Shown piece after piece: positions 3,713 through 37,929 of a DNA stretch of 37,929 nt. Both the position numbers and the translations under genes were made by a program. The stretch lies in IMG/VR virus record IMGVR_UViG_3300032219_000648; one strand, given 5' to 3'. The notes under the pieces were generated by a model. The model was not told where the DNA came from. It saw nothing but the letters and a program-made list of their open reading frames with translations, and did not search any database. Every line of letters starts with the position of its first letter. Positions within the stretch are counted from its first letter, which is position 1. The stretch is from a virus.

Positions 3713-5616
3713 TTCCGATACCTCTTTCCTTCTTTGCCCTCGGCGTTGATCGGGCAGCCTTCGGCCCATGCAGGAACTTGTGTCATGATGTCAATCATTT
3801 CATCGAGCGAACCGAAATCATCCGGCACTTCGCAGATGATTTCATCGTGGACGGACAGGATTACGTTGTAGCCTTTAAGTTCCAACGCCATCATGGCCGT
3901 GGCCATCATGTCGCGGGCGGTTGCTTGCACCACGTTCTCCGTCAGTAGACCGCCCCAGATAATCTGGGATGTCCACTGTCGCGTCACACTATTCAGCGTA
4001 TCGACTTGGGCTGTGTCGCGCATAGCCCCCCAAGGTGTCTCTCGCTGAATGATGCGCGGATTGTGGTATGTAAGCAACCGCCCGCTAGGTAGTGGAAGCT
4101 TGACCGACCCAACACGGCCAGCGTCCTTCACCATCTCTACAAAATCATTCTCAACATCGCGCCAGTATTGCGCGATCCGGTTATTCTTTTCACGGTAGAC
4201 GGCCACGATGCGCTTAGCTTCGTCCTCGTCCACCCTGATCCCCATACTGGCGCACTGTTCGGCAAAGCGTTTGCCGCCCATGCCATAGCCGCAACCCAAG
4301 ATTGCCATCTTACCAACCTGCCGCTGTCCGTCAGTGACGCTATCCACGCCCACGTTGTAGATGGCCGATGCCATTTCTTTATACACGTCTCCCCCCTTTC
4401 GGAACGTCTCAACGAGATCGCTCTGCCCTGCTACCCACGCAAGAACGCGGGCTTCAATCGCCGAGTAGTCGGCGAACATAAGACGGTGGCCCTCATCGGC
4501 TACCAGCATCGAGCGCAACAGGTCGGACGCTAGGACCGTTCCGGCCCCATGTTGCGACACATCCTCGCCCGCTTTAAGTTTGGCGATGATTTCGTCCAAC
4601 TCGTCTTGTTTCTTTTGCGGACGGGGGAAGTTCTGTGGCTGCACCAACTTGCCCGACCAGCGGCCAGTCGCAGCGCCATGATAGACAAGAAGGCCGCGCA
4701 TCCGTCCGTCCGCGTTCACCGCGTGCAGCATCGCATCATACTTGGCTGTGCTGGACTTGGCTCCGTTCTGCCGGAGTTTCAGAACCTCACGGATTACAGG
4801 ATGCAATCGGTCAAAAGATAACAGCCGACCAACGGTTTGTTTGTCAACAGACTTGGCGCGGATGCCATGCGCGTTTAGCCACGCGGTCAAGTCCATCGCA
4901 TTTGTTGCGGCTTTGACTTGGCCTTTGGTGAGGCGTTGGATTTCCGCGTCAATCTCTAGGCTGGCGTTGTTCGCCAGTTCCTTAACGCGATGCACTAAGT
5001 CAACGTCGAGGCCCACGCCCCGGTCGTTGATGCGCTGATCGAGTTGATACAGACGGCGCTCACTGTCGGGCATTGCGTGCAGTGTCTCTGCGACCGACAG
5101 TTCCGTCCGCACGTCCTGTCGGCAATACGCTACAAGCGCATCAAGTTTATCCTTGGTGTTCCACCATGTGTAGCTGCCGTCGGCGTTCACCTTACGCGGC
5201 CGTGCCATCCGGAGCATAAGGGCCGCGCCGGTTTTGTCCTTCTGTTCTTCAACGCCAAGGACCGCAGCCGCTTGGCCTAGTGAACGGGGCAGACCCATCG
5301 CGCTGGCCTGCGCCATCGTGCAGCGCCATTGCTTAATGTTGGTGCGGGGCCATTGATAACGGCCGACCATGATCTCGTTCCAGATTGTGCGCTCGAAGTT
5401 GGCATTCCATGCCGAGAGCAATCCGCCTGCTATGATCCAGTCTTCAAGGTAGGCATCCATCTCATCGCCCGGCAACCATACCTGCACGTCGTCAGACCAC
5501 GGGGCCTTGTAGGCCATGCACCAGATGTCGGTCGATGGGTCAGAGGCGTACTTATAGACGCCCGTTTTGCGGAGATCGACGGCGCTGCGCGTCTCGAAGT
5601 CAACCGATACAATCAC
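3709..5616 (-). CDS. Family A DNA polymerase with 3'-5' exonuclease domain
   Basis: Exo I VDFETRS, Exo III YCRQDV, motif A FADYSAIEARVLAW, motif B RQVGKMAILGCGYG, motif C LSVHDEIICEV. I prefer GTG 5616 as start because it gives MIVSVDFE (compare T7 MIVSDIE) and forms a GTGA overlap with the upstream stop. The track alternative is 5628. Confidence 0.95.
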   Translation of the reverse strand: MIVSVDFETRSAVDLRKTGVYKYASDPSTDIWCMAYKAPWSDDVQVWLPGDEMDAYLEDWIIAGGLLSAWNANFERTIWNEIMVGRYQWPRTNIKQWRCTMAQASAMGLPRSLGQAAAVLGVEEQKDKTGAALMLRMARPRKVNADGSYTWWNTKDKLDALVAYCRQDVRTELSVAETLHAMPDSERRLYQLDQRINDRGVGLDVDLVHRVKELANNASLEIDAEIQRLTKGQVKAATNAMDLTAWLNAHGIRAKSVDKQTVGRLLSFDRLHPVIREVLKLRQNGAKSSTAKYDAMLHAVNADGRMRGLLVYHGAATGRWSGKLVQPQNFPRPQKKQDELDEIIAKLKAGEDVSQHGAGTVLASDLLRSMLVADEGHRLMFADYSAIEARVLAWVAGQSDLVETFRKGGDVYKEMASAIYNVGVDSVTDGQRQVGKMAILGCGYGMGGKRFAEQCASMGIRVDEDEAKRIVAVYREKNNRIAQYWRDVENDFVEMVKDAGRVGSVKLPLPSGRLLTYHNPRIIQRETPWGAMRDTAQVDTLNSVTRQWTSQIIWGGLLTENVVQATARDMMATAMMALELKGYNVILSVHDEIICEVPDDFGSLDEMIDIMTQVPAWAEGCPINAEGKEGKRYRK

Positions 5617-6215: not shown

Positions 6216-6375
6216 GCTGTTCTTTCCCTCTTTTTGTCGGTGTCACGTTTGCTTTCCGTATAGCTGGCACAAAACATATAGTGCCGTCAACAAAAAAAAG
6301 TTCTTGCATTCGATATTCAACTTGTGCCACCCAAGAAGGGCAACAAGAAAGCACGCAGAAAAAGTAAGGGAGATT
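6216..6375. promoter_or_regulatory. Divergent intergenic control region between the leftward replication operon and the rightward operon
   Basis: 160 bp with no credible ORF lying between divergent starts. It contains the dyad GGCAC-N10-GTGCC (6266-6285), an A8 run and TTGACG on the minus strand. I could not fix exact promoter hexamers. Confidence 0.4.
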
Positions 6376-8023: not shown

Positions 8024-8245
8024 ATGGACAAGATAAGGTGGCCCGACAAAGAACAAAAAGTGGACTTTGTTCCAATATTCCTGATCGGTTTCGAAGAAGA
8101 GTTCGAGCGCGGCGTAATAGTAACAACCACTGCGCATGGTATACTGAGCGAAGTTGATCCTAAGTTTGCGGTCTATGCTATAGACGCAGCGATAGACATG
8201 CTGATGCAGAAGCGCGACCAAATTGAAAAGAGGGATTTGAACTAA
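8024..8245 (+). CDS. Hypothetical protein, 73 aa
   Basis: AGGGGA SD. The stop overlaps the primase start (TAATG). Confidence 0.65.
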   Translation: MDKIRWPDKEQKVDFVPIFLIGFEEEFERGVIVTTTAHGILSEVDPKFAVYAIDAAIDMLMQKRDQIEKRDLN

Positions 8246-10719
8246 TGAAATTTAAGACACTGTATGAGGTCGGGTTCACTGACCTCGTGTCCGTTATCCC
8301 GCCGAACGCTGAATTGTCGGCCATGTCTAAAATCCAAGCGGATCAGGCAGGCAAAGCGCCCGGTCGGCAGAATGCGCAGGGCACATGGGGTGGCTATGCT
8401 TGGCAGGACTATGCGCCGACGCCCAATGACGTTGAGCGGTGGGACCGCAGCCATGCTAATATTGGCTTGAAGGCCAGCAAATATCCTGCGGTTGACATTG
8501 ATGTTGTTAACGAGGGGCTGGCTCGGGTCATTGGCGATATGGCGGTGAAGGCATTGGGCAAAGCACCTATGCGTATTGGTCGTTACCCCAAGCGCCTGTT
8601 CATGTATCGCACCGATGAAAAGATCGGCCGTATGCAGGTGCGCTTTCGTGACGGCCGGGGTGTCGAGCAGCTTGTAGAATTTCTAGGGGACGGGCAGCAA
8701 TACGTCATCGCAGGTATTCACCCTATCACTAAGGAGCCATACAGTCTCGATGTGGACTTGGAGGCACGCGGCCCGGCTGGGTTGAAGAAGGTCACGCGAG
8801 ATAAGATTGAGCGGTTCTTTGCTGATCTGACGGAGACGTTGGAGATGATGGGCTGCCAGATTATCCACGCCGACAAGACGGCGCAGAAGGCAGTCGAGCG
8901 GCAGTCGGTAGATCAGGCTTCGCTTACTGCGCCAAGCGTTGTCCATGTGGCTGCTGCCGTGACCGCAATCCCAAACAAGACCGAACACTTCCCTGACCGG
9001 GATGACTATATCCGCATGGGCTATGCCATCAAGGCGGCATGTGGCCCTGACAATGAGACGGATGCGTTCGAGATTTTCGCAGGCTGGGCCGAGCGTTGGG
9101 AAGACGGGGTTAACTCGCTCGATACTATCGAAGCAGACTTCGGCCGTATGCACCCGCCCTATGAGTTGGGTTGGGACTGGCTGGCGAACAAGGCTGCGAC
9201 CTTTGGCTATAAGCGCGAGGTCGATGAGTTCGACGTGGCGGACTTCAGCGACGAAGACTTCGGCGTGGTGGCCTCGGCTGGCGAAACGCCGATTGAGTAT
9301 AGTGACATTGCTCTCGCGCAGCGCGTTGCTCGGCTACACGTTTCGGATATCCGATACGTTGTGGGCGGCATGGGCTGGGTCGCATGGGATGGCAACAAGT
9401 GGGCTTTGGACGTGGCGAAGAAGCATGTGGCCATCGTCCGCAAGGTCTGCGCTCAAGCGTCGGCCGAAGCCTTGGAGAAGATTGAAAGCCCACAAAAGGG
9501 TGAGCGGATCGCGCAGCGTGTGGCGTCGTATAATGTCATCGCTAACGTCGCCAAGTTGGCGGCTGTCGAGCCGATGATGCAGGCGACAACCGAGCAGCTA
9601 GACGCCGACATCTATATCCTCAACACCCGGTCGGGGATGGTGGATTTGAAGACGGGGGTCTTGTTTGCGCATGACCGTTCACGCATGTGCACAAAATGCA
9701 CATCGGTCGAGGCGGACTTCAGTAAGCCTGCCCCGCAATGGCAAGCGTTTCTCAATGAGGCGTGCAACGGTGATGCTGAGATGATTTCTTACCTTCAAAG
9801 GCTGGCTGGCTATTCGGCTACGGGTAGCACCAAAGAGCATGTGCTTGCCTTCGCCCACGGCTCCGGCGGCAATGGCAAAGGAACCTTCCTCGGAGCGATA
9901 GGAAACATCCTTGGCGATTATGCCACCGTGGCCAGTGCGGACGTATTCTTGGCGTCGAACAATCAGCGTCACCCTACAGAGTTGGCGTCGTTGATGGGGG
10001 CAAGGCTCGTTCACGCGCAGGAGATTGACCCGTCGCGCAAGTGGGACGAAGCCAAGGTCAAGAGCCTGACCGGCGGGGACAAGATCAGTGCGCGGTTCAT
10101 GCGGCAGGATTTGTTTGAGTTCGAGCCGCAGTTCACGCTTGTAATCGCAGGCAATACGAAGCCAGAGATTACTAATGTGGACGATGCTATGCGTCGGCGT
10201 ATGCACCTGATCCCGTTCGAGACAAAGCCGCTCCGCAAGGACGTTGACTTGCCGGACAAGCTGAAGGAGGAATACCCGGCCATCTTGGCGTGGGTTATCG
10301 AAGGTGCGAAGGCTTGGCTGGAGCAGGGCTTAAACCCGCCGAAGGCAGTAATCCAAGCTACCGAGGATTATCTCGCAGGAGAGGACGCCTTGGCCCGCTG
10401 GATCACTGAACGCTGCGTGGCTGGCGCGGACAATGAGATGACTACCAATGAAGCGTTCAATGATTTCCGCGATTGGTGCAAGGATAATAATGAGGCCAAG
10501 GGGCGTGACTGGTCGCAGCGTAAGTTCAATGGAGAGATGAAGACGCATGGCTATGAACCCACAAGGGATCGGGCGACACGAACGAAGCGTGTGTTCCGTG
10601 GTCTTGAACTTCTCATTGGCGATGCGGACCACATGATAATAAACGCCATGATAGATGAAGGGTCGGACGATTTCTTTGGCGTTCAGATTAACTTCAAAGC
10701 AGGTGAGGGAGATGAATAA
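8245..10719 (+). CDS. Bifunctional primase-polymerase (AEP/PrimPol) fused to D5/P4-alpha-like SF3 helicase
   Basis: AEP motifs AVDIDV and IAGIHPITKEPY. PriCT-like DRDDYIRMGYAIKAACG. Walker A GSGGNGKGT and Walker B LVHAQEID. C-terminal winged-helix-like tail. Confidence 0.9.
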   Translation: MKFKTLYEVGFTDLVSVIPPNAELSAMSKIQADQAGKAPGRQNAQGTWGGYAWQDYAPTPNDVERWDRSHANIGLKASKYPAVDIDVVNEGLARVIGDMAVKALGKAPMRIGRYPKRLFMYRTDEKIGRMQVRFRDGRGVEQLVEFLGDGQQYVIAGIHPITKEPYSLDVDLEARGPAGLKKVTRDKIERFFADLTETLEMMGCQIIHADKTAQKAVERQSVDQASLTAPSVVHVAAAVTAIPNKTEHFPDRDDYIRMGYAIKAACGPDNETDAFEIFAGWAERWEDGVNSLDTIEADFGRMHPPYELGWDWLANKAATFGYKREVDEFDVADFSDEDFGVVASAGETPIEYSDIALAQRVARLHVSDIRYVVGGMGWVAWDGNKWALDVAKKHVAIVRKVCAQASAEALEKIESPQKGERIAQRVASYNVIANVAKLAAVEPMMQATTEQLDADIYILNTRSGMVDLKTGVLFAHDRSRMCTKCTSVEADFSKPAPQWQAFLNEACNGDAEMISYLQRLAGYSATGSTKEHVLAFAHGSGGNGKGTFLGAIGNILGDYATVASADVFLASNNQRHPTELASLMGARLVHAQEIDPSRKWDEAKVKSLTGGDKISARFMRQDLFEFEPQFTLVIAGNTKPEITNVDDAMRRRMHLIPFETKPLRKDVDLPDKLKEEYPAILAWVIEGAKAWLEQGLNPPKAVIQATEDYLAGEDALARWITERCVAGADNEMTTNEAFNDFRDWCKDNNEAKGRDWSQRKFNGEMKTHGYEPTRDRATRTKRVFRGLELLIGDADHMIINAMIDEGSDDFFGVQINFKAGEGDE

Positions 10720-11117
10720 TGCATAACTACGAAGAGAGACTAAGGAACTGGTCTATGACGCCTGACACTCTCGCCGCCATCCACCTAGATGCGGCGTTGT
10801 TTGGCGTTCCAGAAAATGAAATGGTTAGGCTTAAGATTGTCGGCCTGTCCAGATCGCTCAACGCGACTGCTTCAAGGGTTTACAATTTGGAAAAAGATAA
10901 CGAGTTGTCTAGGATTGCAATCTTTGGCCTAACCAAATCGCTCGATGTGGCTGCCTCACAGGTTCACAAGTTAGAAAAAGAAAACGAGTTCATGCGGGCG
11001 GAAATTAAAAAGGCACGTTGGTATCTGAAAGGGAGGGCGATATTGGTTAAATTCTTTGGGTTCCTGTCATGGTTCAGGATGTTTAAACGTGGCGAAGGCC
11101 AGCAAGAAAGGGTGTGA
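10719..11117 (+). CDS. Hypothetical coiled-coil protein with an internal 28-aa tandem duplication
   Basis: TAATG coupling and a GAGGGAG SD. Residues 39-66 and 67-94 are paralogous (IVGLSRSLNATASRVYNLEKDNE / IFGLTKSLDVAASQVHKLEKENE). Confidence 0.7.
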   Translation: MHNYEERLRNWSMTPDTLAAIHLDAALFGVPENEMVRLKIVGLSRSLNATASRVYNLEKDNELSRIAIFGLTKSLDVAASQVHKLEKENEFMRAEIKKARWYLKGRAILVKFFGFLSWFRMFKRGEGQQERV

Positions 11118-11121
11118 TGGT

Positions 11122-11415
11122 ATGTATGGGAATGATTTTATGAAATACAAAGACATTCGGGATGCGCTCAATCATGAGGTCGTCAGTGACGAGGAAGTCG
11201 ATGCGGTCAATAGCCCTCCGCACTACACGGCGGGAGGGATTGAAGCGATTGACGCCATTGAGGCCGCGCTAAGCGACGAAGGCTTTCGCGGCGCGTTGAA
11301 AGCGAATGTCCTCAAATATCTCTGGCGCTATGAAAAGAAAGCCGATCCAGTTGCGGACCTTCGCAAAGCGAGATGGTATCTTGATCGGCTGATACAAAAA
11401 GTTGAGGGGGCATAA
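11122..11415 (+). CDS. DUF3310 (SaV-like) protein
   Basis: SPPHYTAGGIEAIDAIEAAL ... ALKANVLKYLWRY ... DLRKARWYLDRL matches the DUF3310 pattern as I recall it. Confidence 0.75.
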   Translation: MYGNDFMKYKDIRDALNHEVVSDEEVDAVNSPPHYTAGGIEAIDAIEAALSDEGFRGALKANVLKYLWRYEKKADPVADLRKARWYLDRLIQKVEGA

Positions 11416-11430
11416 CGCCCCCTCTTTTTT
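11404..11430 (+). terminator. Rho-independent terminator ending the rightward early/replication operon
   Basis: GAGGGGGC (11404-11411), loop ATAAC, GCCCCCTC (11417-11424), then TTTTTT (11425-11430). It overlaps the stop of the convergent minus-strand ORF. Confidence 0.8.
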
Positions 11431-11584
11431 ATAGTGCGTTGAAGCCGACGGGCCATGCGTTGGCGGGCTTGTCGGTTTTCGTTATTTTATATTGTGAACC
11501 GCCATAGCGAATACGGGCCGTGCGTTCGTTCTCGTATATGCCGACGGACCGACCCGTCTTGAGGTTGGTGACTTCGTAGTTCAT
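11429..11584 (-). CDS. Hypothetical protein, 51 aa (MNYEVTNLKTGRSVGIYENERTARIRYGGSQYKITKTDKPANAWPVGFNAL)
   Basis: AGGGAAG SD 5 nt upstream and its own sigma70-type promoter at 11641-11669. Below the track cutoff. Confidence 0.6.
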   Translation of the reverse strand: MNYEVTNLKTGRSVGIYENERTARIRYGGSQYKITKTDKPANAWPVGFNAL

Positions 11585-11640: not shown

Positions 11641-11669
11641 ATTATGGAACAATGTTCCGGTCTTGTCAA
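11641..11669 (-). promoter_or_regulatory. Sigma70-type promoter TTGACA-N17-CATAAT with a GGAAC-N3-GTTCC operator in the spacer
   Basis: On the minus strand: TTGACA (11669-11664), a 17-nt spacer, CATAAT (11646-11641). The palindrome GGAACAATGTTCC (11646-11658) fills the spacer. A 10-bp palindrome CTAATATTAG lies just upstream (11673-11682). Confidence 0.6.
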
Positions 11670-11715: not shown

Positions 11716-12001
11716 ATCCGTGCACGGTTTGAGAGGGTCCGTGCATGGTTGGTGCACGGTTTAGGGCCGGATAAAATGGCTGAAATCTAAGGATGTGCCG
11801 GAAGTGCACGGTTTAAAAAAGTTAATCCGCTCTTACGACAGTAACAGTGTTAGAAGTGGTCATATTACAATGTTACTTACTTATGGGAACCAATGCGCCG
11901 ACAAACCGTGCACTCCGTGCACATTGGCGGAAATGCGTGGGTAAACCCGGCCCTAAACCCGGCCCGAACCGTGCACGGAGATATGCAAACCGTGCACGGA
12001 T
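11716..12001. repeat. 286-bp modular imperfect palindrome (axis 11858/11859) built from GTGCACGG(TTT) and other boxes around an AT-rich core
   Basis: Mirrored box pairs: 11716-11730/11987-12001 (15/15), 11738-11750/11967-11979 (12/13), 11758-11770/11947-11959 (13/13), 11793-11798/11919-11924 (6/6), 11801-11814/11903-11916 (13/14), 11841-11850/11867-11876 (9/10). The spacers between boxes match at only 2-5 of 10 positions. Confidence 0.9.
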
Positions 12002-12013
12002 GGCAGTTTTCCG

Positions 12014-12541
12014 TTAATCGTCGTCAAAAACACCCGGCAAGTCGTCCGCATCGAGGTTATGAGAGCCGACTTGCTTGGTTGGTGTGATGTCGATGACTTC
12101 TGGTTCATCGGCGTCGAGGGTATGTGGATTTGATGACGCCAAGTTTAGCTGGCGCAGTGCATCAAGGTGGAGTTGGTTCACGTTGACTTGGACCGCTGTG
12201 GTCGGCTTGGCTTGGAACTTCTCTGGTGCTGCAACGCCAGCCAGCCACTTGCGTGTTTCAATCTTGAGCCTGTCAGCATTGGCCGATGTGTTGTCCGAGG
12301 CATCGGCAATGTCGAGGCACTCATCTGCCCATTGGTCAGCCGCGATTGCCCGCGCCTGTTTAAACCGCTCCTCCCGATCCGGGTCTTTGCGTATCCAATG
12401 ATAGAGCGACAGGTTGCTGATGTTCAATTCACGAGCGAGGCCAGCCATTGTCAGGCCGGAAGCAATCTTCTCCAGCAGAACAGTCTCGCCAACCTTATCT
12501 AAGTTTGACGCAATCGTGCGCCGTTTAATATGTCCAGCCAT
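12014..12541 (-). CDS. terS: Terminase small subunit, Sf6 gp1-like
   Basis: HTH region GLTMAGLARELNISNLSLYHWIRKDPDREERFKQARAIAADQWADECLDIADAS ... RLKIETRKWLAGVAAPEKF parallels Sf6 gp1 (FRWLAKHEDFRDKYAKATEARAD...IADNA...RLRVDTRKWALARMNPRKYG) as I recall it. AAGGA SD. Confidence 0.75.
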   Translation of the reverse strand: MAGHIKRRTIASNLDKVGETVLLEKIASGLTMAGLARELNISNLSLYHWIRKDPDREERFKQARAIAADQWADECLDIADASDNTSANADRLKIETRKWLAGVAAPEKFQAKPTTAVQVNVNQLHLDALRQLNLASSNPHTLDADEPEVIDITPTKQVGSHNLDADDLPGVFDDD

Positions 12542-12629: not shown

Positions 12630-12809
12630 CTATGCACGCTCCAGACCCCTTAAAAACGTCTCTAAGAGGATAGAGACTGGAGCGGGGACTGAACGGCCAC
12701 CTTGTTCATAGTATCTGATCGACCTTTCGGACAGTCCTATCTTGTAGGCAAGCTGCCCTTGCGTTAGCTTCAGCCTCTCGCGTGTTGCTTTAAATTCTTC
12801 ACTTGTCAT
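12630..12809 (-). CDS. Cro/XRE-family helix-turn-helix protein, 59 aa
   Basis: LKLTQGQLAYKIGLSERSIRYYEQGGRSVPAPVSILLE is a canonical HTH_3 pattern. ATGA-coupled to the upstream ORF. Below the track cutoff. Confidence 0.75.
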   Translation of the reverse strand: MTSEEFKATRERLKLTQGQLAYKIGLSERSIRYYEQGGRSVPAPVSILLETFLRGLERA

Positions 12810-12976
12810 TTGCTTTGTTCCTCAAGTCCGCGCCGGATGCCCTGCTCAACGAGGCGCATCCAGATTGTGTGGTCCCAACCGCCGGACAGATATAGCTGCC
12901 CATCGCTGTTGTCCTGCTTTTCGCATTGAGCCGCGCAAATTTGCCGTGCGGCGTGTGTTATTTCTTTATCGGTCAT
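12806..12976 (-). CDS. Hypothetical protein, 56 aa
   Basis: ATGA overlaps at both ends and an AAGGA SD. Below the track cutoff. Confidence 0.55.
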   Translation of the reverse strand: MTDKEITHAARQICAAQCEKQDNSDGQLYLSGGWDHTIWMRLVEQGIRRGLEEQSK

Positions 12977-13176
12977 GCTTCATCCTTTAGCGCCTTTTCG
13001 GCGTCCTCAATTAATTCGATGGGTGGGTAGCGCAGATAGGACACATGGTCTTTGCCTATCACGCCAAGCATCTCAAGAAACTCCATCAAGCGATAGGCCA
13101 AGGTTTCCCCGGCCCGTTCGATGTATCGTTCGGGCAGTGCCAATTCGTCGTCCTCATCGTCGTCGTAGTAGGTCAT
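12973..13176 (-). CDS. Strongly acidic hypothetical protein, 67 aa
   Basis: MTYYDDDEDDELALPE... By my count 19 D/E versus 7 K/R. ATGA overlaps at both ends. Confidence 0.65.
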   Translation of the reverse strand: MTYYDDDEDDELALPERYIERAGETLAYRLMEFLEMLGVIGKDHVSYLRYPPIELIEDAEKALKDEA

Positions 13177-13310
13177 TTGCTTTGTTCCTTTTCACGTTCT
13201 GCGCGGCGTTCGGCAAAGGTCTTGCCATCGAGGCCGCGCAGCGGCCAAGCATCGTCTGACGATACGCGGTGGTTCCGGCCCATTGGCGCGGCTTGCTGTG
13301 GTTTAATCAT
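13173..13310 (-). CDS. Hypothetical protein, 45 aa
   Basis: The start at 13310 is preceded by the conserved cassette CAAAAGGAGCATAAC. The track start at 13367 lacks an SD. Confidence 0.5.
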   Translation of the reverse strand: MIKPQQAAPMGRNHRVSSDDAWPLRGLDGKTFAERRAEREKEQSK

Positions 13311-13330
13311 GTTATGCTCCTTTTGTTTTG

Positions 13331-13759
13331 TTAAACTATTTCCAGGCCATTGCCGCCGGATTGCCAAGGGATATTGCGAAACTTGAACGATCCGCCGTTC
13401 TGACCGACAAGGCGGTATACTGGCACTGAATAACGGCTTACTTGGTCAAAGCCGCACAATTCAAAATGACTAGGCCATTCGATAACGTCCGCATAATCGG
13501 CCAGTCGCTTTGCGTAGCGTTTGCTTTGCAGAAGCTTGATGCCGCTGTCGTGCAACTCGCCGACAACTTTAGGGCAGTCGCGGTCAATCATGGCAAGCGC
13601 CAGATATATATCATCACCCGCTGCCCTAGGGCAGGTCGCGCTAACCGATAGTCCGGCGCGGCGGCGACCCTCGGCGTTGAGGGCTTTGCGTAAGCCAATG
13701 ATGTTTGTTTTCGTGACGCTGCCGCTGGCGATTGCGTCAATATGTTTTTGGAATGTCAT
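13331..13759 (-). CDS. Hypothetical protein, 142 aa
   Basis: The start at 13759 is preceded by the identical CAAAAGGAGCATAAC cassette. No motif recognised. Confidence 0.7.
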   Translation of the reverse strand: MTFQKHIDAIASGSVTKTNIIGLRKALNAEGRRRAGLSVSATCPRAAGDDIYLALAMIDRDCPKVVGELHDSGIKLLQSKRYAKRLADYADVIEWPSHFELCGFDQVSRYSVPVYRLVGQNGGSFKFRNIPWQSGGNGLEIV

Positions 13760-13959: not shown

Positions 13960-14049
13960 TTATGCTTCCCTCACTGTTTCAATGATTGCGTAGATCGATA
14001 GGGCCAAGACGCCCCAAAAGAATGCGTTGATTGCTATGTGGGCTGTCAT
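13960..14049 (-). CDS. 29-aa single-pass membrane peptide (MTAHIAINAFFWGVLALSIYAIIETVREA)
   Basis: ATGA overlap with the upstream stop. Hydrophobic core of about 20 aa. Below the track cutoff. Confidence 0.4.
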   Translation of the reverse strand: MTAHIAINAFFWGVLALSIYAIIETVREA

Positions 14050-14315
14050 GCTGCATCCGCTTCCATCATGTCGGCGTGATGTTCTGCCAGTGCGTCCCAA
14101 TCGACGCTGTTAAGGTCGAGCATATCCCAGATGAACCCTGCGCCTGTGCTTTCAAACCCAATAAATTCTCCAACGTAATTCTCAACGCTGTCGCGGCAAT
14201 ATTCTGGAGTAACATCTACACCGTCTTCGGTAGCTAAAGCCCAGCCATCGCCGAACCATAGGTTTACAGTCCAAGTGGCTGCATTGCGCCATCCGTTGCA
14301 TGAAATATCTGTCAT
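14046..14315 (-). CDS. Acidic hypothetical protein, 89 aa
   Basis: NGWRNAATWTVNLWF motif. About 18 D/E versus 2 K/R. Preceded by the conserved 39-nt leader with an AGGAG SD. Confidence 0.7.
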   Translation of the reverse strand: MTDISCNGWRNAATWTVNLWFGDGWALATEDGVDVTPEYCRDSVENYVGEFIGFESTGAGFIWDMLDLNSVDWDALAEHHADMMEADAA

Positions 14316-15511: not shown

Positions 15512-15743
15512 CACTGTTACAGTCTGAAACCCGCAGAAATGCGTTAGTTTTTGAGCCGGGGAGGGGTGGTGGCATTTAAATTTGACCCCCCCCGCCCCGG
15601 TCTTGCGCGGGGGGCGCGTGCGCACAACCTGACAGACATCGAGGTGTGCCCCCACCCCCCGTACTCCTTTATTTTTGATCCCCCAGCCAAAAAAAATTTC
15701 TAACTTTTTGCTTGCCAAGTTGTAACAATAGAGTGTAACAGTG
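15512..15743. repeat. 13/14 inverted repeats bracketing a 204-bp structured, homopolymer-rich noncoding segment upstream of the recombinase
   Basis: CACTGTTACAGTCT (15512-15525) versus the reverse complement of AGAGTGTAACAGTG (15730-15743). The interior has an imperfect hairpin at 15556-15600 with an ATTTAAAT loop, plus C8, G6, C5, C6 and A8 runs and the palindrome GTGCGCAC. Confidence 0.6.
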
Positions 15744-15771: not shown

Positions 15772-16452
15772 TTGGCAGTTTATGGATACACTCGCGTCTC
15801 GACTGAAGACCAGATTGAGAACACATCGCTCGATGATCAAGCCCGCCAAATCCAAGGCATCGCGCTCACACATAATTTGGAACTGGACCATATATATGAA
15901 GAGCGTGGCGTCTCTGGCGGCGTCCCGCTGCTCCGCCGAGAAGAAGGCTGCAAGCTGGCGTTCCTACGGCCGGGCGATACCGTCATCGTATCGAAGCTGG
16001 ACCGTATGTTTCGCGATGCGAGAGACGCACTAAACGTGATTGCCGACTGGGAGACGGCGAACATTAATCTCATCATCAACGGCTACGGCAATGTGATGGA
16101 CAAGGCCAACCCGAACGGCCGCTTCATGCTAGAGATCATGGCCGTCTTCGCCGGGGAAGAGCGCCGCCGTATCAGAGAACGTGTCACCGCCGGTAAGAGA
16201 GCCAAGCGTTCGCAGGGCGGATATGTCGGCGGCAAAGTGCCATTTGGGTTTAAGAAGTCAGGCACAGGCCGCAAGGCCAAGCTGCACCCAGAACCAAATG
16301 CGCAGGACGCGCTAATTACAATGAAAGCCGCACGCGTTAAAGGTCATAGCTACCGCGATATTGCTATTATCGTAGCAAAGCGTCATGGTATATCAGTTAG
16401 CCATCAAACAATCGCACGCGTAATCCGGGGAGATAAGAATGACGAAATCTGA
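15772..16452 (+). CDS. Small serine recombinase (resolvase/invertase family) with C-terminal HTH
   Basis: YGYTRVSTEDQ (catalytic Ser), VSKLDRMFRD, EERRRIRERVTAG, and C-terminal HTH SYRDIAIIVAKRHGISVSHQTIARVIR. TTG start with a GGGAGA SD. The 3' end overlaps terL by 14 nt. Confidence 0.9.
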   Translation: MAVYGYTRVSTEDQIENTSLDDQARQIQGIALTHNLELDHIYEERGVSGGVPLLRREEGCKLAFLRPGDTVIVSKLDRMFRDARDALNVIADWETANINLIINGYGNVMDKANPNGRFMLEIMAVFAGEERRRIRERVTAGKRAKRSQGGYVGGKVPFGFKKSGTGRKAKLHPEPNAQDALITMKAARVKGHSYRDIAIIVAKRHGISVSHQTIARVIRGDKNDEI

Positions 16453-17848
16453 GCCGAACTTCTTTTTAGAGTTCCTGAAGAAATACCGCGATGATCCTGT
16501 AGGGTTCGTGCGGGATATTCTGAGAACTAAGCCAGACCCTTGGCAAGTCGAGTTTCTGAAAGCGATCAGCGCCGGGAACCGTCGTATTTCCGTTCGCTCA
16601 GGCCACGGCGTCGGCAAATCGACAGCCGCAAGCTGGGCCATGCTGCATTACTTTCTGACGCGGTATCCGGTAAAGGTCGTTGTGACTGCGCCGACATCCG
16701 CACAGTTGTTCGATGCGATGTTCGCGGAACTGAAGCGATGGGTGAATGAACTGCCCGAAGTGCTGAAGGTTCTGATCGAAGTCAAGACCGACCGTATTGA
16801 ATTGAAGGCCGCAGCCAGTGAAGCCTTTATCTCCGCCAGAACGAGCCGAGCAGAAACGCCAGAAGCCTTGCAGGGTATCCACGCCGACAACGTGCTGCTC
16901 GTCGCAGACGAAGCGTCCGGTATTCCCGAAAGTGTGTTTGAAGCTGCGTCCGGTTCTATGTCCGGTCACAATGCGACGACGCTTCTTCTGGGCAACCCAA
17001 CGCGAAACACTGGATTATTCTACGATACGCACAACCGCTTAAAGGGTGAATGGAAGACCTTCCACGTTAGCTGCCTCGACAGCCCACGCGTATCCGATGC
17101 GTTCGTCCGAGAGATGCAGTTGCGGTACGGCGAAGACAGCCCGGCCTACCATGTCCGTGTCCTTGGTAACTTCCCGCCGCGTGAAGAAGATACCGTCATC
17201 CCGGTCGAGTTGATCGACAGCGCCATGAACCGCGAGATTAAGATCGCCAAGCAAACGAAAAGTGTGTGGGGCCTAGACGTGGCGCGTATGGGTTCCGACG
17301 CTTCCGCCCTCGCCAAGCGGCGTGGGCCGGTCGTTGAGGAGATACAGACTTGGAAAGGTCTGGACCTAATGCAGCTAACCGGCGCAGTCGTAGCCGAGTT
17401 TGAGGCGCTGCCGCCATCGGAACAGCCGGTCGAGATATTGGTCGATAGCATCGGGTTGGGGGCGGGTGTGCTTGACCGTCTGCGCGAACTGGGTCTGCCA
17501 GCGCGAGGGATCAACGTGGCGGAAAGCCCCGCGCTGAAAGGAACTTACGCCAACCTACGCGCCGAGTTGTGGTTCAAATGCAAAGGGTGGCTGGCGAACC
17601 GCGATGTTAAGATACCGAAGGATGAGCAGTTGTTCGCCGAGTTGGCGTCACCGCGCTACACCTTTACCTCGTCGGGCAAGATGCAGGTGGAGAGCAAGGA
17701 GAGTATGAAGAAGCGCGGGCTTCCGTCACCAGACAAGGCGGACGCTTTGTGTCTATGTCTGGCCACCGACCTGTCAACGATTATGCACGGATATTCGATG
17801 GCCAACAAGTCCGGCGCGTTGCGTCGAAATATAAAAGGTGTAGTTTGA
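16439..17848 (+). CDS. terL: Terminase large subunit
   Basis: Walker A-like RSGHGVGKST, Walker B LLVADEASGI, and nuclease-domain acidic motifs (WGLDVARMGSD, ILVDSIGLG, SPDKADAL). Confidence 0.9.
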   Translation: MTKSEPNFFLEFLKKYRDDPVGFVRDILRTKPDPWQVEFLKAISAGNRRISVRSGHGVGKSTAASWAMLHYFLTRYPVKVVVTAPTSAQLFDAMFAELKRWVNELPEVLKVLIEVKTDRIELKAAASEAFISARTSRAETPEALQGIHADNVLLVADEASGIPESVFEAASGSMSGHNATTLLLGNPTRNTGLFYDTHNRLKGEWKTFHVSCLDSPRVSDAFVREMQLRYGEDSPAYHVRVLGNFPPREEDTVIPVELIDSAMNREIKIAKQTKSVWGLDVARMGSDASALAKRRGPVVEEIQTWKGLDLMQLTGAVVAEFEALPPSEQPVEILVDSIGLGAGVLDRLRELGLPARGINVAESPALKGTYANLRAELWFKCKGWLANRDVKIPKDEQLFAELASPRYTFTSSGKMQVESKESMKKRGLPSPDKADALCLCLATDLSTIMHGYSMANKSGALRRNIKGVV

Positions 17849-23315: not shown

Positions 23316-24326
23316 ATGACGGAACAAGTCGGCAACCCCAGTGCAGGGATCGGCCTCCACGAAGCAACACTAGCCATCGACCAATTGCTTGGCCCTGATG
23401 AGGACACCCAAGACGAGGCCGAGGCGCAAGAGCCTGAAGAGGCTCAAGACGACGCGGAAGAAACTGAAGCCGAAAATTACTCGGAAGAAGAGGAAACCGA
23501 ACAGTCTGACCCGGATGAAGATGACGACGTAGAAGAGGTTATCGAACAGGAACTTCCTGACGATCTAACCATCAAGGTTAAACTTGACGGTGAAGAAACG
23601 GAAGTCACCCTTGACGAACTTCGGAAAGGTTATTCTCGTTATTCGGATTACACACGGAAAACTCAGGCGTTAGCTGAAGAACGTAAGTCGTTCCAAGGCG
23701 AAGCCGAAGCGATCCGTATGGAACGCGCTCAATACGCGGAACTGCTACCTGCGCTTAAAGCGCAACTTGAGGTGCAGTCCGAGGCTGAGCCTGATTGGGA
23801 CAATCTTTATAATGAAGACCCCATTGAGGCGGCGCGGTTGGAACGGCATTGGAATAAGTCTCGTCAGGAACGAACCGCTAAAATTCAGGCTATCAACGCC
23901 GAACAGCAGCGGATTGCTGAAGAGATGGCCAAAGAGCAACAGCGTGCATTGGCTGACATTGTGCAGTCAGAACGCGCCAAACTCACCGAAGTCATTCCTG
24001 AATGGAAAGACGAAGGCACAATGCAAAGCGAAGCTAAGGAACTTCGTGAATGGGCTTTGAACAATGGGTTTAGTGAACGCGACCTAAGCGCACTTGTCCA
24101 AGCCACTCACGTCTCAATCCTTCGCAAAGCTATGATGTTTGATAAGGGTTCGAAGAAAGTGGAAAAAGTGAAGGCCCAGCCAAAGAAGGTTGCCCGGATC
24201 GTTCGCCCCGGTTCTTCAGGAACTCAAATCAACACACGTTCTTCCGATGTAAAGAAAGCGTCCCAGCGCCTTGCGCGTACAGGCCGTGTTGCAGATGCAG
24301 CGGCCTTGTTGGATAAACTCATTTAA
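23316..24326 (+). CDS. Scaffolding protein
   Basis: Extremely acidic N-terminal third and a long coiled-coil. Lies directly upstream of the major capsid gene. Confidence 0.7.
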   Translation: MTEQVGNPSAGIGLHEATLAIDQLLGPDEDTQDEAEAQEPEEAQDDAEETEAENYSEEEETEQSDPDEDDDVEEVIEQELPDDLTIKVKLDGEETEVTLDELRKGYSRYSDYTRKTQALAEERKSFQGEAEAIRMERAQYAELLPALKAQLEVQSEAEPDWDNLYNEDPIEAARLERHWNKSRQERTAKIQAINAEQQRIAEEMAKEQQRALADIVQSERAKLTEVIPEWKDEGTMQSEAKELREWALNNGFSERDLSALVQATHVSILRKAMMFDKGSKKVEKVKAQPKKVARIVRPGSSGTQINTRSSDVKKASQRLARTGRVADAAALLDKLI

Positions 24327-37600: not shown

Positions 37601-37844
37601 CGCTAAGTTCAACGCGGAGAACCCAGAACTTGCTTTGCTAAAGAAGTTTAAGGGCATGAACCGCGAAGAGAAGATCATGCTCAACCGCCAAATTGAAAGC
37701 ACCACGGGCATGACGGCCGATACATTGTTACGTCAGTTGAGCAAGGCCCCCCTTATCAAGAGCCAAGAACAATTTGACGCACTTCCTGTCGGCACTCAAT
37801 ACACTGATCCCGGCGACTATAAGGTCTATACGAAAGGCAAGTAA
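34674..37844 (+). CDS. Large internal virion/DNA-ejection protein, 1056 aa
   Basis: Largest ORF and last gene of the late operon. It contains a 2 x 32-aa tandem duplication. No catalytic motif recognised by eye. Confidence 0.6.
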   Translation: MAETKPKGAPVFLEIPATGETITLPGVTSLNSNDELKAAADAWIAKNYKGPLLAAPVVARTPVEGETQGILPGEEIKVTANRQPELKAYVPDTFAGSILDAIASGVTNVAGFLPGFDERGAVQYGQDVRSNIETLLGLEGTERSFRDIAAGRGTGEDYLIAGLTAAPFAAVGLKAGAKRIAPEFSATVSRLATGPVAVADEIAAAVPETALSPEMAAVATPITPAPVVPSTLPRAQAVELPEAPATGTRAASRGKFTFDDLLEAPVAAAAIPEAAPLTGTGAVSKGKFTFDDLLEAPEAAVIPEAAVVPRNVAYDLPPSTPGTGIPAIEAMQVKGQTQPVPTAEIGGKVANFAADYSSLAGLQRPADMPFSEFFYRHFKAGTLPEEEVSKLVTKHDLKDEDLFELITGSRQGLGDAARVMQRFSIASRYVPKEAADIAKLGLQEADDLGFWKRFTNVYRGALVSSVATTMRNVISSVGRVPIDAATNLMDSAVNAAANPFRQQKVGVSPFDAAALLTDRFAPGRNAKFWEQMKNVQPEINKELAATYAADVARVTKKDAFAKVEKAVDVANLLNRVSETATRKALFPVMLRREATRLGLDFNELVATDGMARLPDEAWTKALDDTLGFTYSARSEVADKFSQMLDKMGKVGTVARVVGTTIMPFPRFMMNAMKFQFDYSPAGFTKLLTEAERAKFAKGDVSAVSKAIVGSAMLYGAYQFRNSENAGEKWYEAKLPDGRTVDLRPFFPAAPYLLIADVIKRSQDNTLDQAFETKDILQGLSGAQFRAGTGLYVTDQLLKDLSGASGNLDKAKTITTSWLADVGAGFLQPFSTFKDFYAQYDPEEAVYRDTKDNPLGALVRPIPGAQQALGIPAAPSATREGPLTTEDPALRQLLGATIRPVKNIVESELDKLGLTPYDVGSKTGEIAIDRLVNRDLGIIAERGIAPLLQSPEYQNLDNVGKSAAIKEIYSKAREAANAKFNAENPELALLKKFKGMNREEKIMLNRQIESTTGMTADTLLRQLSKAPLIKSQEQFDALPVGTQYTDPGDYKVYTKGK
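35412..35603 (+). repeat. 2 x 96-bp in-frame tandem duplication inside the 1056-aa gene
   Basis: The units start at 35412 and 35508. The 35-nt core GGAAAGTTTACGTTTGATGATTTACTTGAAGCCCC is identical in both copies and encodes GKFTFDDLLEAP. Confidence 0.9.
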
Positions 37845-37929
37845 TGGCCAAGAAGAGTGGTGTTAAAGATATGTCGTGGCGGCCGCAGCCGAAAGCTAAA
37901 CGTCGCCACAAACCCGACGGGCTTCGCCA
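37807..37929. repeat. Terminal direct repeat copy 2 (identical to 1-123)
   Basis: See copy 1. It contains the last 38 nt of the 1056-aa gene and the first 86 nt of the 43-aa ORF. Confidence 0.95.

Follow-up and report, generated by a model that had tools for sequence, protein, structure and literature searches.

A mirrored twelve-box block beside a TerS-like gene is a probable replication origin matched to the winged helix of a phage primase-helicase

The window analysed here is a 37,929-nucleotide stretch of viral DNA (IMG/VR record IMGVR_UViG_3300032219_000648), and its subject is a 286-bp block of mirrored boxes at 11716-12001, which we examine as a candidate replication origin of the encoded primase-helicase. 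The window is a circular phage assembly of about 37.8 kb with an exact 123-bp overlap (1-123 and 37807-37929), and it is this terminal overlap that shows the assembly to be circular. The phage encodes a replication set consisting of a helicase, an exonuclease, a family-A DNA polymerase and an 824-aa primase-helicase. The block itself sits within a 430-bp gap bounded by two minus-strand genes (12014-12541 and 11429-11584).

Anatomy of the block and its surroundings

When the block was compared with its own mirror image without gaps, 88 of 143 positions were complementary (z = 9.6), and no other 286-bp window of the genome scores as high (mean 35.9, standard deviation 5.4). The runner-up window (23583-23868) reaches 63/143, about 5 standard deviations above the mean, and lies within the head scaffolding gene (23316-24326). 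Using the degenerate 8-bp definition G[GT]GC[AC][CTG]G[GA], we found six boxes per arm, twelve in total, every one directed toward the centre. In the left arm (11716-11814, plus strand), which is nearer the primase gene, the boxes occupy 11720-11727, 11741-11748, 11752-11759, 11764-11771, 11795-11802 and 11804-11811, several of them with a TTT tail, and a 23-bp outer spacer separates box 4 from box 5. The TerS-proximal arm (11903-12001, minus strand) is the exact positional mirror, with boxes at 11906-11913, 11915-11922, 11946-11953, 11958-11965, 11969-11976 and 11990-11997. The spacings of 21, 11, 12, 31 and 9 bp recur exactly mirrored in the other arm, all six pair sums equal 23717, which puts the axis at 11858.5 (11858/11859), and the boxes share helical phase to within about 2 bp. 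All six box pairs that a preliminary description of this DNA had placed on one shared axis are present, and its GGTTTAGGGCCGG and ATGTGC items proved to be further boxes of the GKGCCGG subtype.

The sequence GTGCACGGTT(T), exact or with one mismatch, is confined to the block, save for one-mismatch matches at 10088 and 29119. Its core, CCGTGCACGG, is itself palindromic, so that the outermost boxes can be read on both strands, and mirrored boxes are often unlike in subtype, for example GTGCACGG versus GGGCCGGG. The spacers do not pair with each other, in keeping with the earlier statement that they are unrelated, but they are not random: (A/T)TGGC(T/G)GAAAT occurs in both arm spacers, at 11776-11787 and 11924-11935, as a direct repeat 148 bp apart. 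These TGGCnGAAAT elements break the dyad because they have the same orientation in both arms. A related sequence, ATGGCAGTTTTCC, is found at 12000-12012, past the last box and before the terS stop; elements of this type are kept in relatives whose boxes are of the GTGCAC class, whereas the spacers of GGGAC-class relatives differ.

Between the arms lies an AT-rich centre (11815-11902) with 61% A+T against 46.5% for the genome, close to the roughly 60% estimated earlier, and this would be the DNA unwinding region. It contains an inner inverted repeat, AGTAACAGTGT at 11840-11850 (plus strand) and AGTAACATTGT at 11867-11877 (minus strand), whose halves stand 16 bp apart and follow the consensus AGTAACAnTGT. 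Four mechanical open reading frames (ORFs) of 51 to 64 aa overlap the block and none is supported, in agreement with the earlier view that no credible ORF lies inside.

On the right, the Sf6-TerS-like gene (12014-12541, minus strand, 175 aa; PF20901, 2e-16) has its stop 13 bp from the block, so the description of the block as immediately downstream of terS is correct for the minus strand only. No terminator-like site was found between this gene and the boxes, and therefore its transcript probably runs into the block; in relatives, a strong terminator stands directly beyond it. On the left, a 51-aa ORF (11429-11584, minus strand) ends at a bidirectional terminator (11404-11424), and upstream of this ORF, outside the left arm, is a sigma-70-like promoter, TTGACA-17-CATAAT (11641-11669, minus strand, 11/12), which we regard as flanking context and not as a part of the block.

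The primase-helicase gene (8245-10719, plus strand) ends well to the left: from its stop at 10719 to the first box at 11720 there are three ORFs, at 10719-11117, 11056-11415 and 11429-11584. In tblastn searches, the 51-aa ORF and the 132-aa ORF (10719-11117) gave 6 and 12 matches, respectively, compared with 165 to 175 for the TerS-like, primase and DUF3310 proteins. Since these two ORFs are detected at few loci, the stretch between the primase gene and the block appears to be a variable slot. To the right, a small serine recombinase of 226 aa (15772-16452, plus strand; Resolvase domain, 9.7e-31) overlaps the start of TerL (16439-17848, plus strand) by 14 nt. It holds the usual place of TerS before TerL, and the sole TerS-like gene, of the Sf6 type, ends the leftward operon.

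A DNA search of cultured phage records with the region plus its flanks gave no match, and with the block alone it gave just chance 27-nt mycobacteriophage matches; Rfam and tRNA scans of the window returned nothing. The phage family, about 38 kb in genome size, is widespread but metagenome-only, with more than 120 IMG/VR contigs and no DNA match among cultured phage records. The host scan returned three contigs of metagenome-assembled genomes (MAGs) from conflicting taxa (Arenimonas, Thermotogae and Anaerolineales), and because these are unrelated we make no host call.

Box classes in relatives and the protein that matches them

A protein-guided scan of IMG/VR yielded 127 TerS-like relatives and 139 primase-helicase relatives. 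In all of them the same plan follows the terS stop: a spacer separates three to four boxes from two tandem boxes, after which come about 85 bp of centre and then the mirror image. About 80 non-redundant metagenomic relatives retain both layout and spacing while the box sequence varies; the spacing 20/21, 11, 11/12, 31/32 and 9 is found also in relatives with GGGAC instead of GTGCAC, and the layout persists in relatives with a different or inverted downstream gene. The A+T peak is central in 87 of 87 non-redundant relatives, with a median of 68% in 60 bp compared with 42 to 46% in the arms. The preliminary description had proposed to look for conserved boxes in related genomes; what is conserved is the mirrored layout and its spacing, and the box sequence itself changes by class.

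We distinguished four box classes. The first mixes GTGCAYGG with GKGCCGGG, and the second is GGGAC(G/A). The third, CGGACGC, is seen in contig L179 as CGGACGCTTAG downstream of terS, and the fourth, GKGCCATRTAG, in contig L174 (about 4050-4370) as GGGGCCATRTAG and CTATATGGCACGG. A further split between GTGCAC and GKGCCGG was tried and dropped, because identical winged-helix residues accompany both and a single block often contains the two together; we count them as one specificity.

The way in which the boxes change also bears on a purely structural explanation, in which the block would act as a hairpin or cruciform, in the DNA or in a read-through RNA, that terminates transcription, marks a processing site or forms a hairpin end. 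The single strand does fold at -73.5 kcal/mol (z = -9.4 against shuffles), and the joint change of the two arms in relatives resembles compensatory change. However, such a fold is a trivial consequence of any inverted repeat, the spacers do not take part in the pairing, and the boxes facing each other across the axis are often of different subtypes. One box sequence is moreover reused six times per arm, which a helix does not need and which is expected of a binding-site array; the box changes track a protein domain, as described below, and no Rfam family matches. We give the hairpin next to no credence and rejected it, as a spaced array of protein sites fits the pattern in the relatives. The earlier proposal of spaced protein-binding boxes with a global dyad, as opposed to a hairpin, is upheld by the repetition of the box within each arm and its change by class at fixed positions.

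In order to find the protein that reads the boxes, non-redundant relatives were labelled by box class and the protein alignments were scanned column by column for normalised mutual information (MI). Among 58 non-redundant relatives, the primase-helicase gave MI values of 0.86 each at residues 762 and 774, 0.61 at 735, 0.60 at 772, and 0.54 each at 763 and 733, whereas its residues outside 727-774 did not exceed 0.19. The maxima for the other proteins were 0.17 for the TerS-like protein, whose gene stops 13 bp from the boxes, 0.23 for the serine recombinase, 0.08 for HTH59, 0.21 for TerL, and 0.22 for the DUF3310 gene product encoded between the primase gene and the block; six other proteins with usable samples had maxima of 0.16 to 0.43. 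The ORF at 14046-14315 reached 0.63, yet with n = 11 sequences this is too few to interpret.

The trees gave the same picture. On the tree of primase residues 1-700, box class requires 16 Fitch changes compared with 15.2 for shuffled labels, while on the tree of residues 720-800 it requires only 4 (shuffled 15.2, minimum 10). On the recombinase, HTH59 and TerL trees, box class is distributed like random. The two short segments, about 1 kb apart, stay matched while the surrounding DNA recombines freely, which points to selection for a working pair, and not linkage, as what keeps the primase winged helix and the boxes together.

A second finder, independent of TerS, gave 78 combinations, in which R774 goes with 54 GTGCAY/GKGCCGG blocks and K774 with 21 GGGAC blocks; residue 774 alone (R or K) predicts the box class in 75 of 76. 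The four box classes pair with four residue sets. The CGGACGC class has S733, T735, S762, A763, I772 and R774, and the GKGCCATRTAG class has A733, G735, I762, A763, P772 and K774. Within the GGGAC class, H772 tends to occur with GGGACG and P772 or I772 with GGGACA, with exceptions. An out-of-sample MAG contig (L190), whose primase is 73% identical and carries N762 and R774, has GTGCACGG boxes, matching the prediction. From these comparisons of relatives, we consider cognate specificity between the primase-helicase winged helix and the boxes to be strongly supported. The proposal that the C-terminal domain of the primase-helicase reads the block as an origin thereby gains strong support from the covariation with residues 733-774.

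The adjacent TerS-like protein had been the second candidate reader, with the block as its pac site: TerS oligomers would bind both arms in the manner of SPP1 G1P at pacL and pacR, and TerL would cut the centre. In SPP1, pacL-pacC-pacR consists of two arms around a central target, which the layout of the block resembles, and in relatives the distance from the end of the TerS-like gene to the first box is always 13-20 bp. Three contigs (L046, L058 and L014) also end 155, 164 and 179 bp past the terS stop, near the axis; these ends could be assembly breakage at the palindrome. Although TerS is the nearest gene, none of its residues tracks box class, and on its tree box class requires 17 Fitch changes versus 19 for random labels. 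Residues 1-125, which span the Sf6_terminase match, have 76% of positions at least 95% conserved across box classes, the block shows no overall enrichment of contig ends (4 versus 6, 5, 3 and 6 in neighbouring bins), and the gene and TerL are on opposite strands, 3.9 kb apart. A pac site is therefore very unlikely to be the function of the block, and the earlier suggestion of one is not supported.

The primase-helicase has matches to PF08706 D5_N (4.9e-24), DUF5906 (9.7e-13) and TIGR01613, the P4-family primase C-terminal model (303 bits), and a weak one to PriCT_2. It matches SaPI5 PriRep5 (7ola) with E = 1.3e-7 and, in the helicase region, P4 alpha with E = 7e-13 by BLASTP, while its C-terminal domain and that of P4 alpha fail to align by BLASTP. 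It is thus a D5_N, P4-family superfamily 3 (SF3) helicase with a C-terminal winged helix, and it belongs to the P4-alpha family.

Sequence searches say little about the C-terminal domain itself: the last 144 aa gave nothing significant against the PDB (African swine fever virus [ASFV] C962R, E = 1.5), and a homologue search returned 15 proteins, mainly fragments with uninformative names. With a first model of the 144 aa (pLDDT 66.7), the winged-helix matches in Foldseek were all non-significant. The AF2 model of residues 716-795 (10390-10629, plus strand) has a pLDDT of 85.7 and shows a β-H1-H2-H3 order followed by a β-hairpin wing. Its best PDB matches in Foldseek were the RFX DNA-binding domain 1dp7 (probability 1.0, TM 0.68-0.71), RFX5 and the C-terminal domain of the ASFV PrimPol C962R. 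An RFX/P4-type winged-helix fold at residues 716-795 is, on this model, reasonably secure.

When mapped on the model, the covarying residues fall at three places: 762 and 763 sit midway along the recognition helix H3, 772 and 774 belong to wing strand β2, and 733 and 735 are found where β1 joins H1. In RFX, the DNA contacts are made by helix 3 plus the wing (PMC2777425). The corresponding codons in the window, all on the plus strand, are T733 (10441-10443), N735 (10447-10449), N762 and G763 (10528-10533), P772 (10558-10560) and R774 (10564-10566).

An origin reading and the repeat at the centre

According to the above-described analysis, the block is most probably the replication origin of the phage, an iteron origin like those that serve self-loading SF3 primase-helicases such as the Rep and PriRep proteins of Staphylococcus aureus pathogenicity islands (SaPIs), with the 824-aa primase-helicase as its putative initiator. 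In each arm, the six boxes would receive the six winged helices of a single hexamer; if one hexamer docks per arm, two oppositely oriented SF3 hexamers would load head-to-head. The facing hexamers would then melt the AT-rich centre, each encircling a single strand, after which the N-terminal primase domain would prime and bidirectional replication would start with the phage DNA polymerase. More speculatively, read-through transcription from the TerS-like operon may aid the opening.

Several observations weigh against this reading. The step of one hexamer per arm rests solely on the box count of six. The Foldseek E-values are weak, the best being 9.9e-3 (1dp7), and neither P4 alpha 1ka8 nor the SaPI Rep C-terminal domain is among the listed Foldseek matches; the Pfam match to Pox_D5, the family equated with this winged helix in a study of pRN1 (PMC2777425), is below threshold (E = 0.0048). 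Between the primase gene and the origin there are 996 bp with three ORFs, whereas a SaPI origin directly follows its initiator gene. GC and AT skew give no origin signal, with the minimum at 6332, and since the skew tracks gene orientation it is uninformative on the origin. Finally, one contig (L185, IMGVR_UViG_3300031951_001661, 12727-13382) combines an N762/R774 winged helix with GGGACGC arms and is the sole mismatch. Its primase is 99.7% identical to that of L182, which has GTGCAY boxes, while its arms are of the L184 type and the 67-bp centre is retained. This contig may be a chimeric metagenome assembly, or it may be a real mismatch or recent recombinant.

Covariation speaks for cognate recognition only and not for initiation, and the same array could be an operator for transcription leaving the TerS-like operon, a handcuffing site or a partition site, bound by the winged helix or by a co-evolving protein, with replication starting elsewhere. 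In favour of this, the block belongs to a 3' region that is transcribed, no terminator precedes it and a promoter follows just beyond, and in P4 the crr is a second iteron cluster that is required in cis and yet is not the start site (P4 record features). However, we disfavour this possibility because the boxes form a single cluster in the genome and leave no separate origin-like cluster. In SaPI origins, moreover, an AT-rich centre between convergent arrays is the distinguishing mark of the site that melts (PMC9371898), and relatives keep the layout even with a different or inverted downstream gene. It seems that such a role is quite improbable.

The repeat at the centre of the origin follows rules of its own. 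Across the relatives, the centres fall into type A, with the GTAACA repeat, in which the inner inverted repeat is conserved, type B, which is TATATA-rich, and a third type. Types A and B are each found with both box classes, and centre type is independent of box class and shows no association with the tested proteins. The preliminary description had observed that GTAACAGTG of the centre recurs beside the recombinase gene, and this is true and conserved, with the qualification that it concerns the centre only and that other centre types lack it. A 204-bp segment rich in G and C runs lies directly upstream of the recombinase/TerL operon, flanked by an inverted repeat of 14 nt, CACTGTTACAGTCT and AGAGTGTAACAGTG (93%), at 15512-15525 and 15730-15743, and also at 15720-15729. 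The repeat contains GTAACAnTG, as does the origin centre, and relatives keep it at positions -261 and -37 relative to the start of the recombinase gene. In a group with 74% identity (contig L182), GTGTTAAGGCG replaces the motif at both sites, that is, in the origin centre and upstream of the recombinase (about 13579 and 13869 in L182). Type B origins are without the motif, though it stays upstream of their recombinase gene. The repeats upstream of the recombinase could be divergent phage promoters, the ends of an invertible segment, or sites for a regulator.

This recurrence of (A/T)GTAACAnTGT around the 204-bp segment, together with the parallel replacement by GTGTTAAGGCG, is what speaks for the third role proposed earlier, in which the block is a synapsis or crossover site of the 226-aa serine recombinase, of the res or hix type. 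Sites such as hix, gix and res consist of inverted 12-bp half-sites about a 2-bp crossover core; the half-sites in the origin centre are 16 bp apart and do not surround a 2-bp core. The recombinase is linked neither to box class nor to centre type (maximum MI 0.33, from few sequences), type B centres lack the motif while it is present at the recombinase gene, and the twelve flanking boxes would be left unexplained. With no covariation and an unfitting half-site geometry, we consider a recombination site highly implausible.

A more elaborate possibility adds a second layer to the origin: the primase-helicase would read the arms, and a second protein would read the centre repeat as well as the repeats upstream of the recombinase and TerL. 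The TerS-like protein or the serine recombinase may be this reader of the centre. We regard such a two-layer control node as unlikely. If it were true, replication initiation would be physically coupled to late transcription or packaging through one DNA-binding protein, and the freely swapped arm and centre modules would be a natural system that rewires both.

The origin reading places the replication origin and names the initiator domain for a metagenomic phage family of about 38 kb. What makes the block interesting is its strict 6 + 6 mirror geometry, together with a natural series of specificity switches that match between protein and boxes and a centre that can be exchanged independently. 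Six winged-helix positions, set against at least four iteron classes, make up a mutagenesis table for the way in which RFX/P4-type winged helices of SF3 primase-helicases read DNA, and this specificity series could guide the design of orthogonal origin/initiator pairs. For the loading of double hexamers, the in-phase 6 + 6 layout supplies a specific geometry that can be tested, the hexamer orientation at SaPI origins being still listed as an open question (PMC9371898). As a method, covariation over metagenomic relatives with mosaic genomes can, with no experiment, link a cis element to its binder and reject a neighbouring gene.

Comparison with known systems

The origin design itself is already known from SaPIs. 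Their origins have 6 to 12 iterons in two opposed sets around an AT-rich centre, bound by the C-terminal winged helix of Rep, and SaPI Reps are self-loading SF3 helicases that bind and melt without ATP, two hexamers being thought to load, one per side (PMC9371898). The block shares with them the short iterons in two opposed sets around an AT-rich centre and an SF3 helicase with a C-terminal winged helix. In SaPI5 the helicase is likewise fused to a primase, and SaPI Rep/origin pairs are island-specific (PMC9371898). Thus, four of five testable features of the SaPI type are found here, namely the SF3 initiator, the winged helix, the opposed iterons around an AT-rich centre and the cognate specificity. 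The winged-helix fold is in this count by way of the model, and homology to the SaPI C-terminal domain or to P4 alpha 1ka8 is not demonstrated. The fifth feature, an origin immediately downstream of rep, is absent: the SaPI origin lies immediately 3' of rep, while the origin of this phage abuts the TerS-like gene. Its boxes are 8 bp plus a TTT tail, compared with SaPI iterons of 5-6 bp; there are always about 6 + 6 of them with exact mirror spacing, along with a conserved inverted repeat in the centre. A SaPI is a satellite, while the replicon here is a phage of 37.8 kb that encodes a DNA polymerase of its own.

P4 resembles this phage in its alpha-type initiator and in its short iterons in both orientations (P4 record NC_001609 features). 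However, ori and crr of P4 are about 4.5 kb apart and have 8-bp type 1 repeats without a single global dyad; here one cluster holds all the boxes, and the bipartite arrangement of an ori with a distant crr is not seen. The box sequences are unrelated, and alpha has a primase domain of the bacterial DnaG type (PMC2777425), where this protein has the weak PriCT_2 match only. P4 alpha and ORF904 of pRN1 have primase, SF3 helicase and winged helix in the same order (PMC2777425). ORF904 combines a PrimPol, a D5_N/SF3 helicase and a C-terminal RFX/P4-like winged helix, with the origin downstream of its gene, and the RFX domain, as 1dp7, is also the top structural match of the winged helix analysed here; in that study a cognate site was undefinable for ORF904 (PMC2777425), whereas here the sites are suggested by covariation.

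With the pac sites of SPP1 (pacL-pacC-pacR), Sf6 and P22, the block has in common a small-terminase-like neighbour and two repeat sets flanking a central target; it differs in that its boxes track the primase-helicase and not the TerS-like protein. The core origins of SV40 and papillomavirus have inverted arrays of initiator sites about a dyad, plus a melting region, and assemble two SF3 hexamers head-to-head. The likeness to SV40 large T antigen and papillomavirus E1 is a comparison of how the systems work, with no sequence relationship. Their origin-binding domains are of other folds and lie N-terminal to the helicase, and their sites are pentamers or hexamers within about 64 bp.

Among cultured phages, the closest primase is that of the Acidithiobacillus phage AcaML1 (JX507079.1), with 42.5% identity over residues 343-789. 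In the 140-bp gap after its primase stop we found convergent 9-bp iterons, three copies of GGTCTGACG and two inverted copies about 44 bp apart (3 + 2; positions 5368-5469 of the extracted locus L189, 13708-13809 of the record), which are unannotated. This set is smaller, about 100 bp with five boxes, its centre is GC-rich (CGCGCGCGCG), and it lies directly behind the primase gene with no origin annotation. In AcaML1, which has been cultured, these iterons are likely an origin that follows the same design. Because AcaML1 carries this smaller version directly behind its primase gene, the design is probably common among phages with P4-family primase-helicases.

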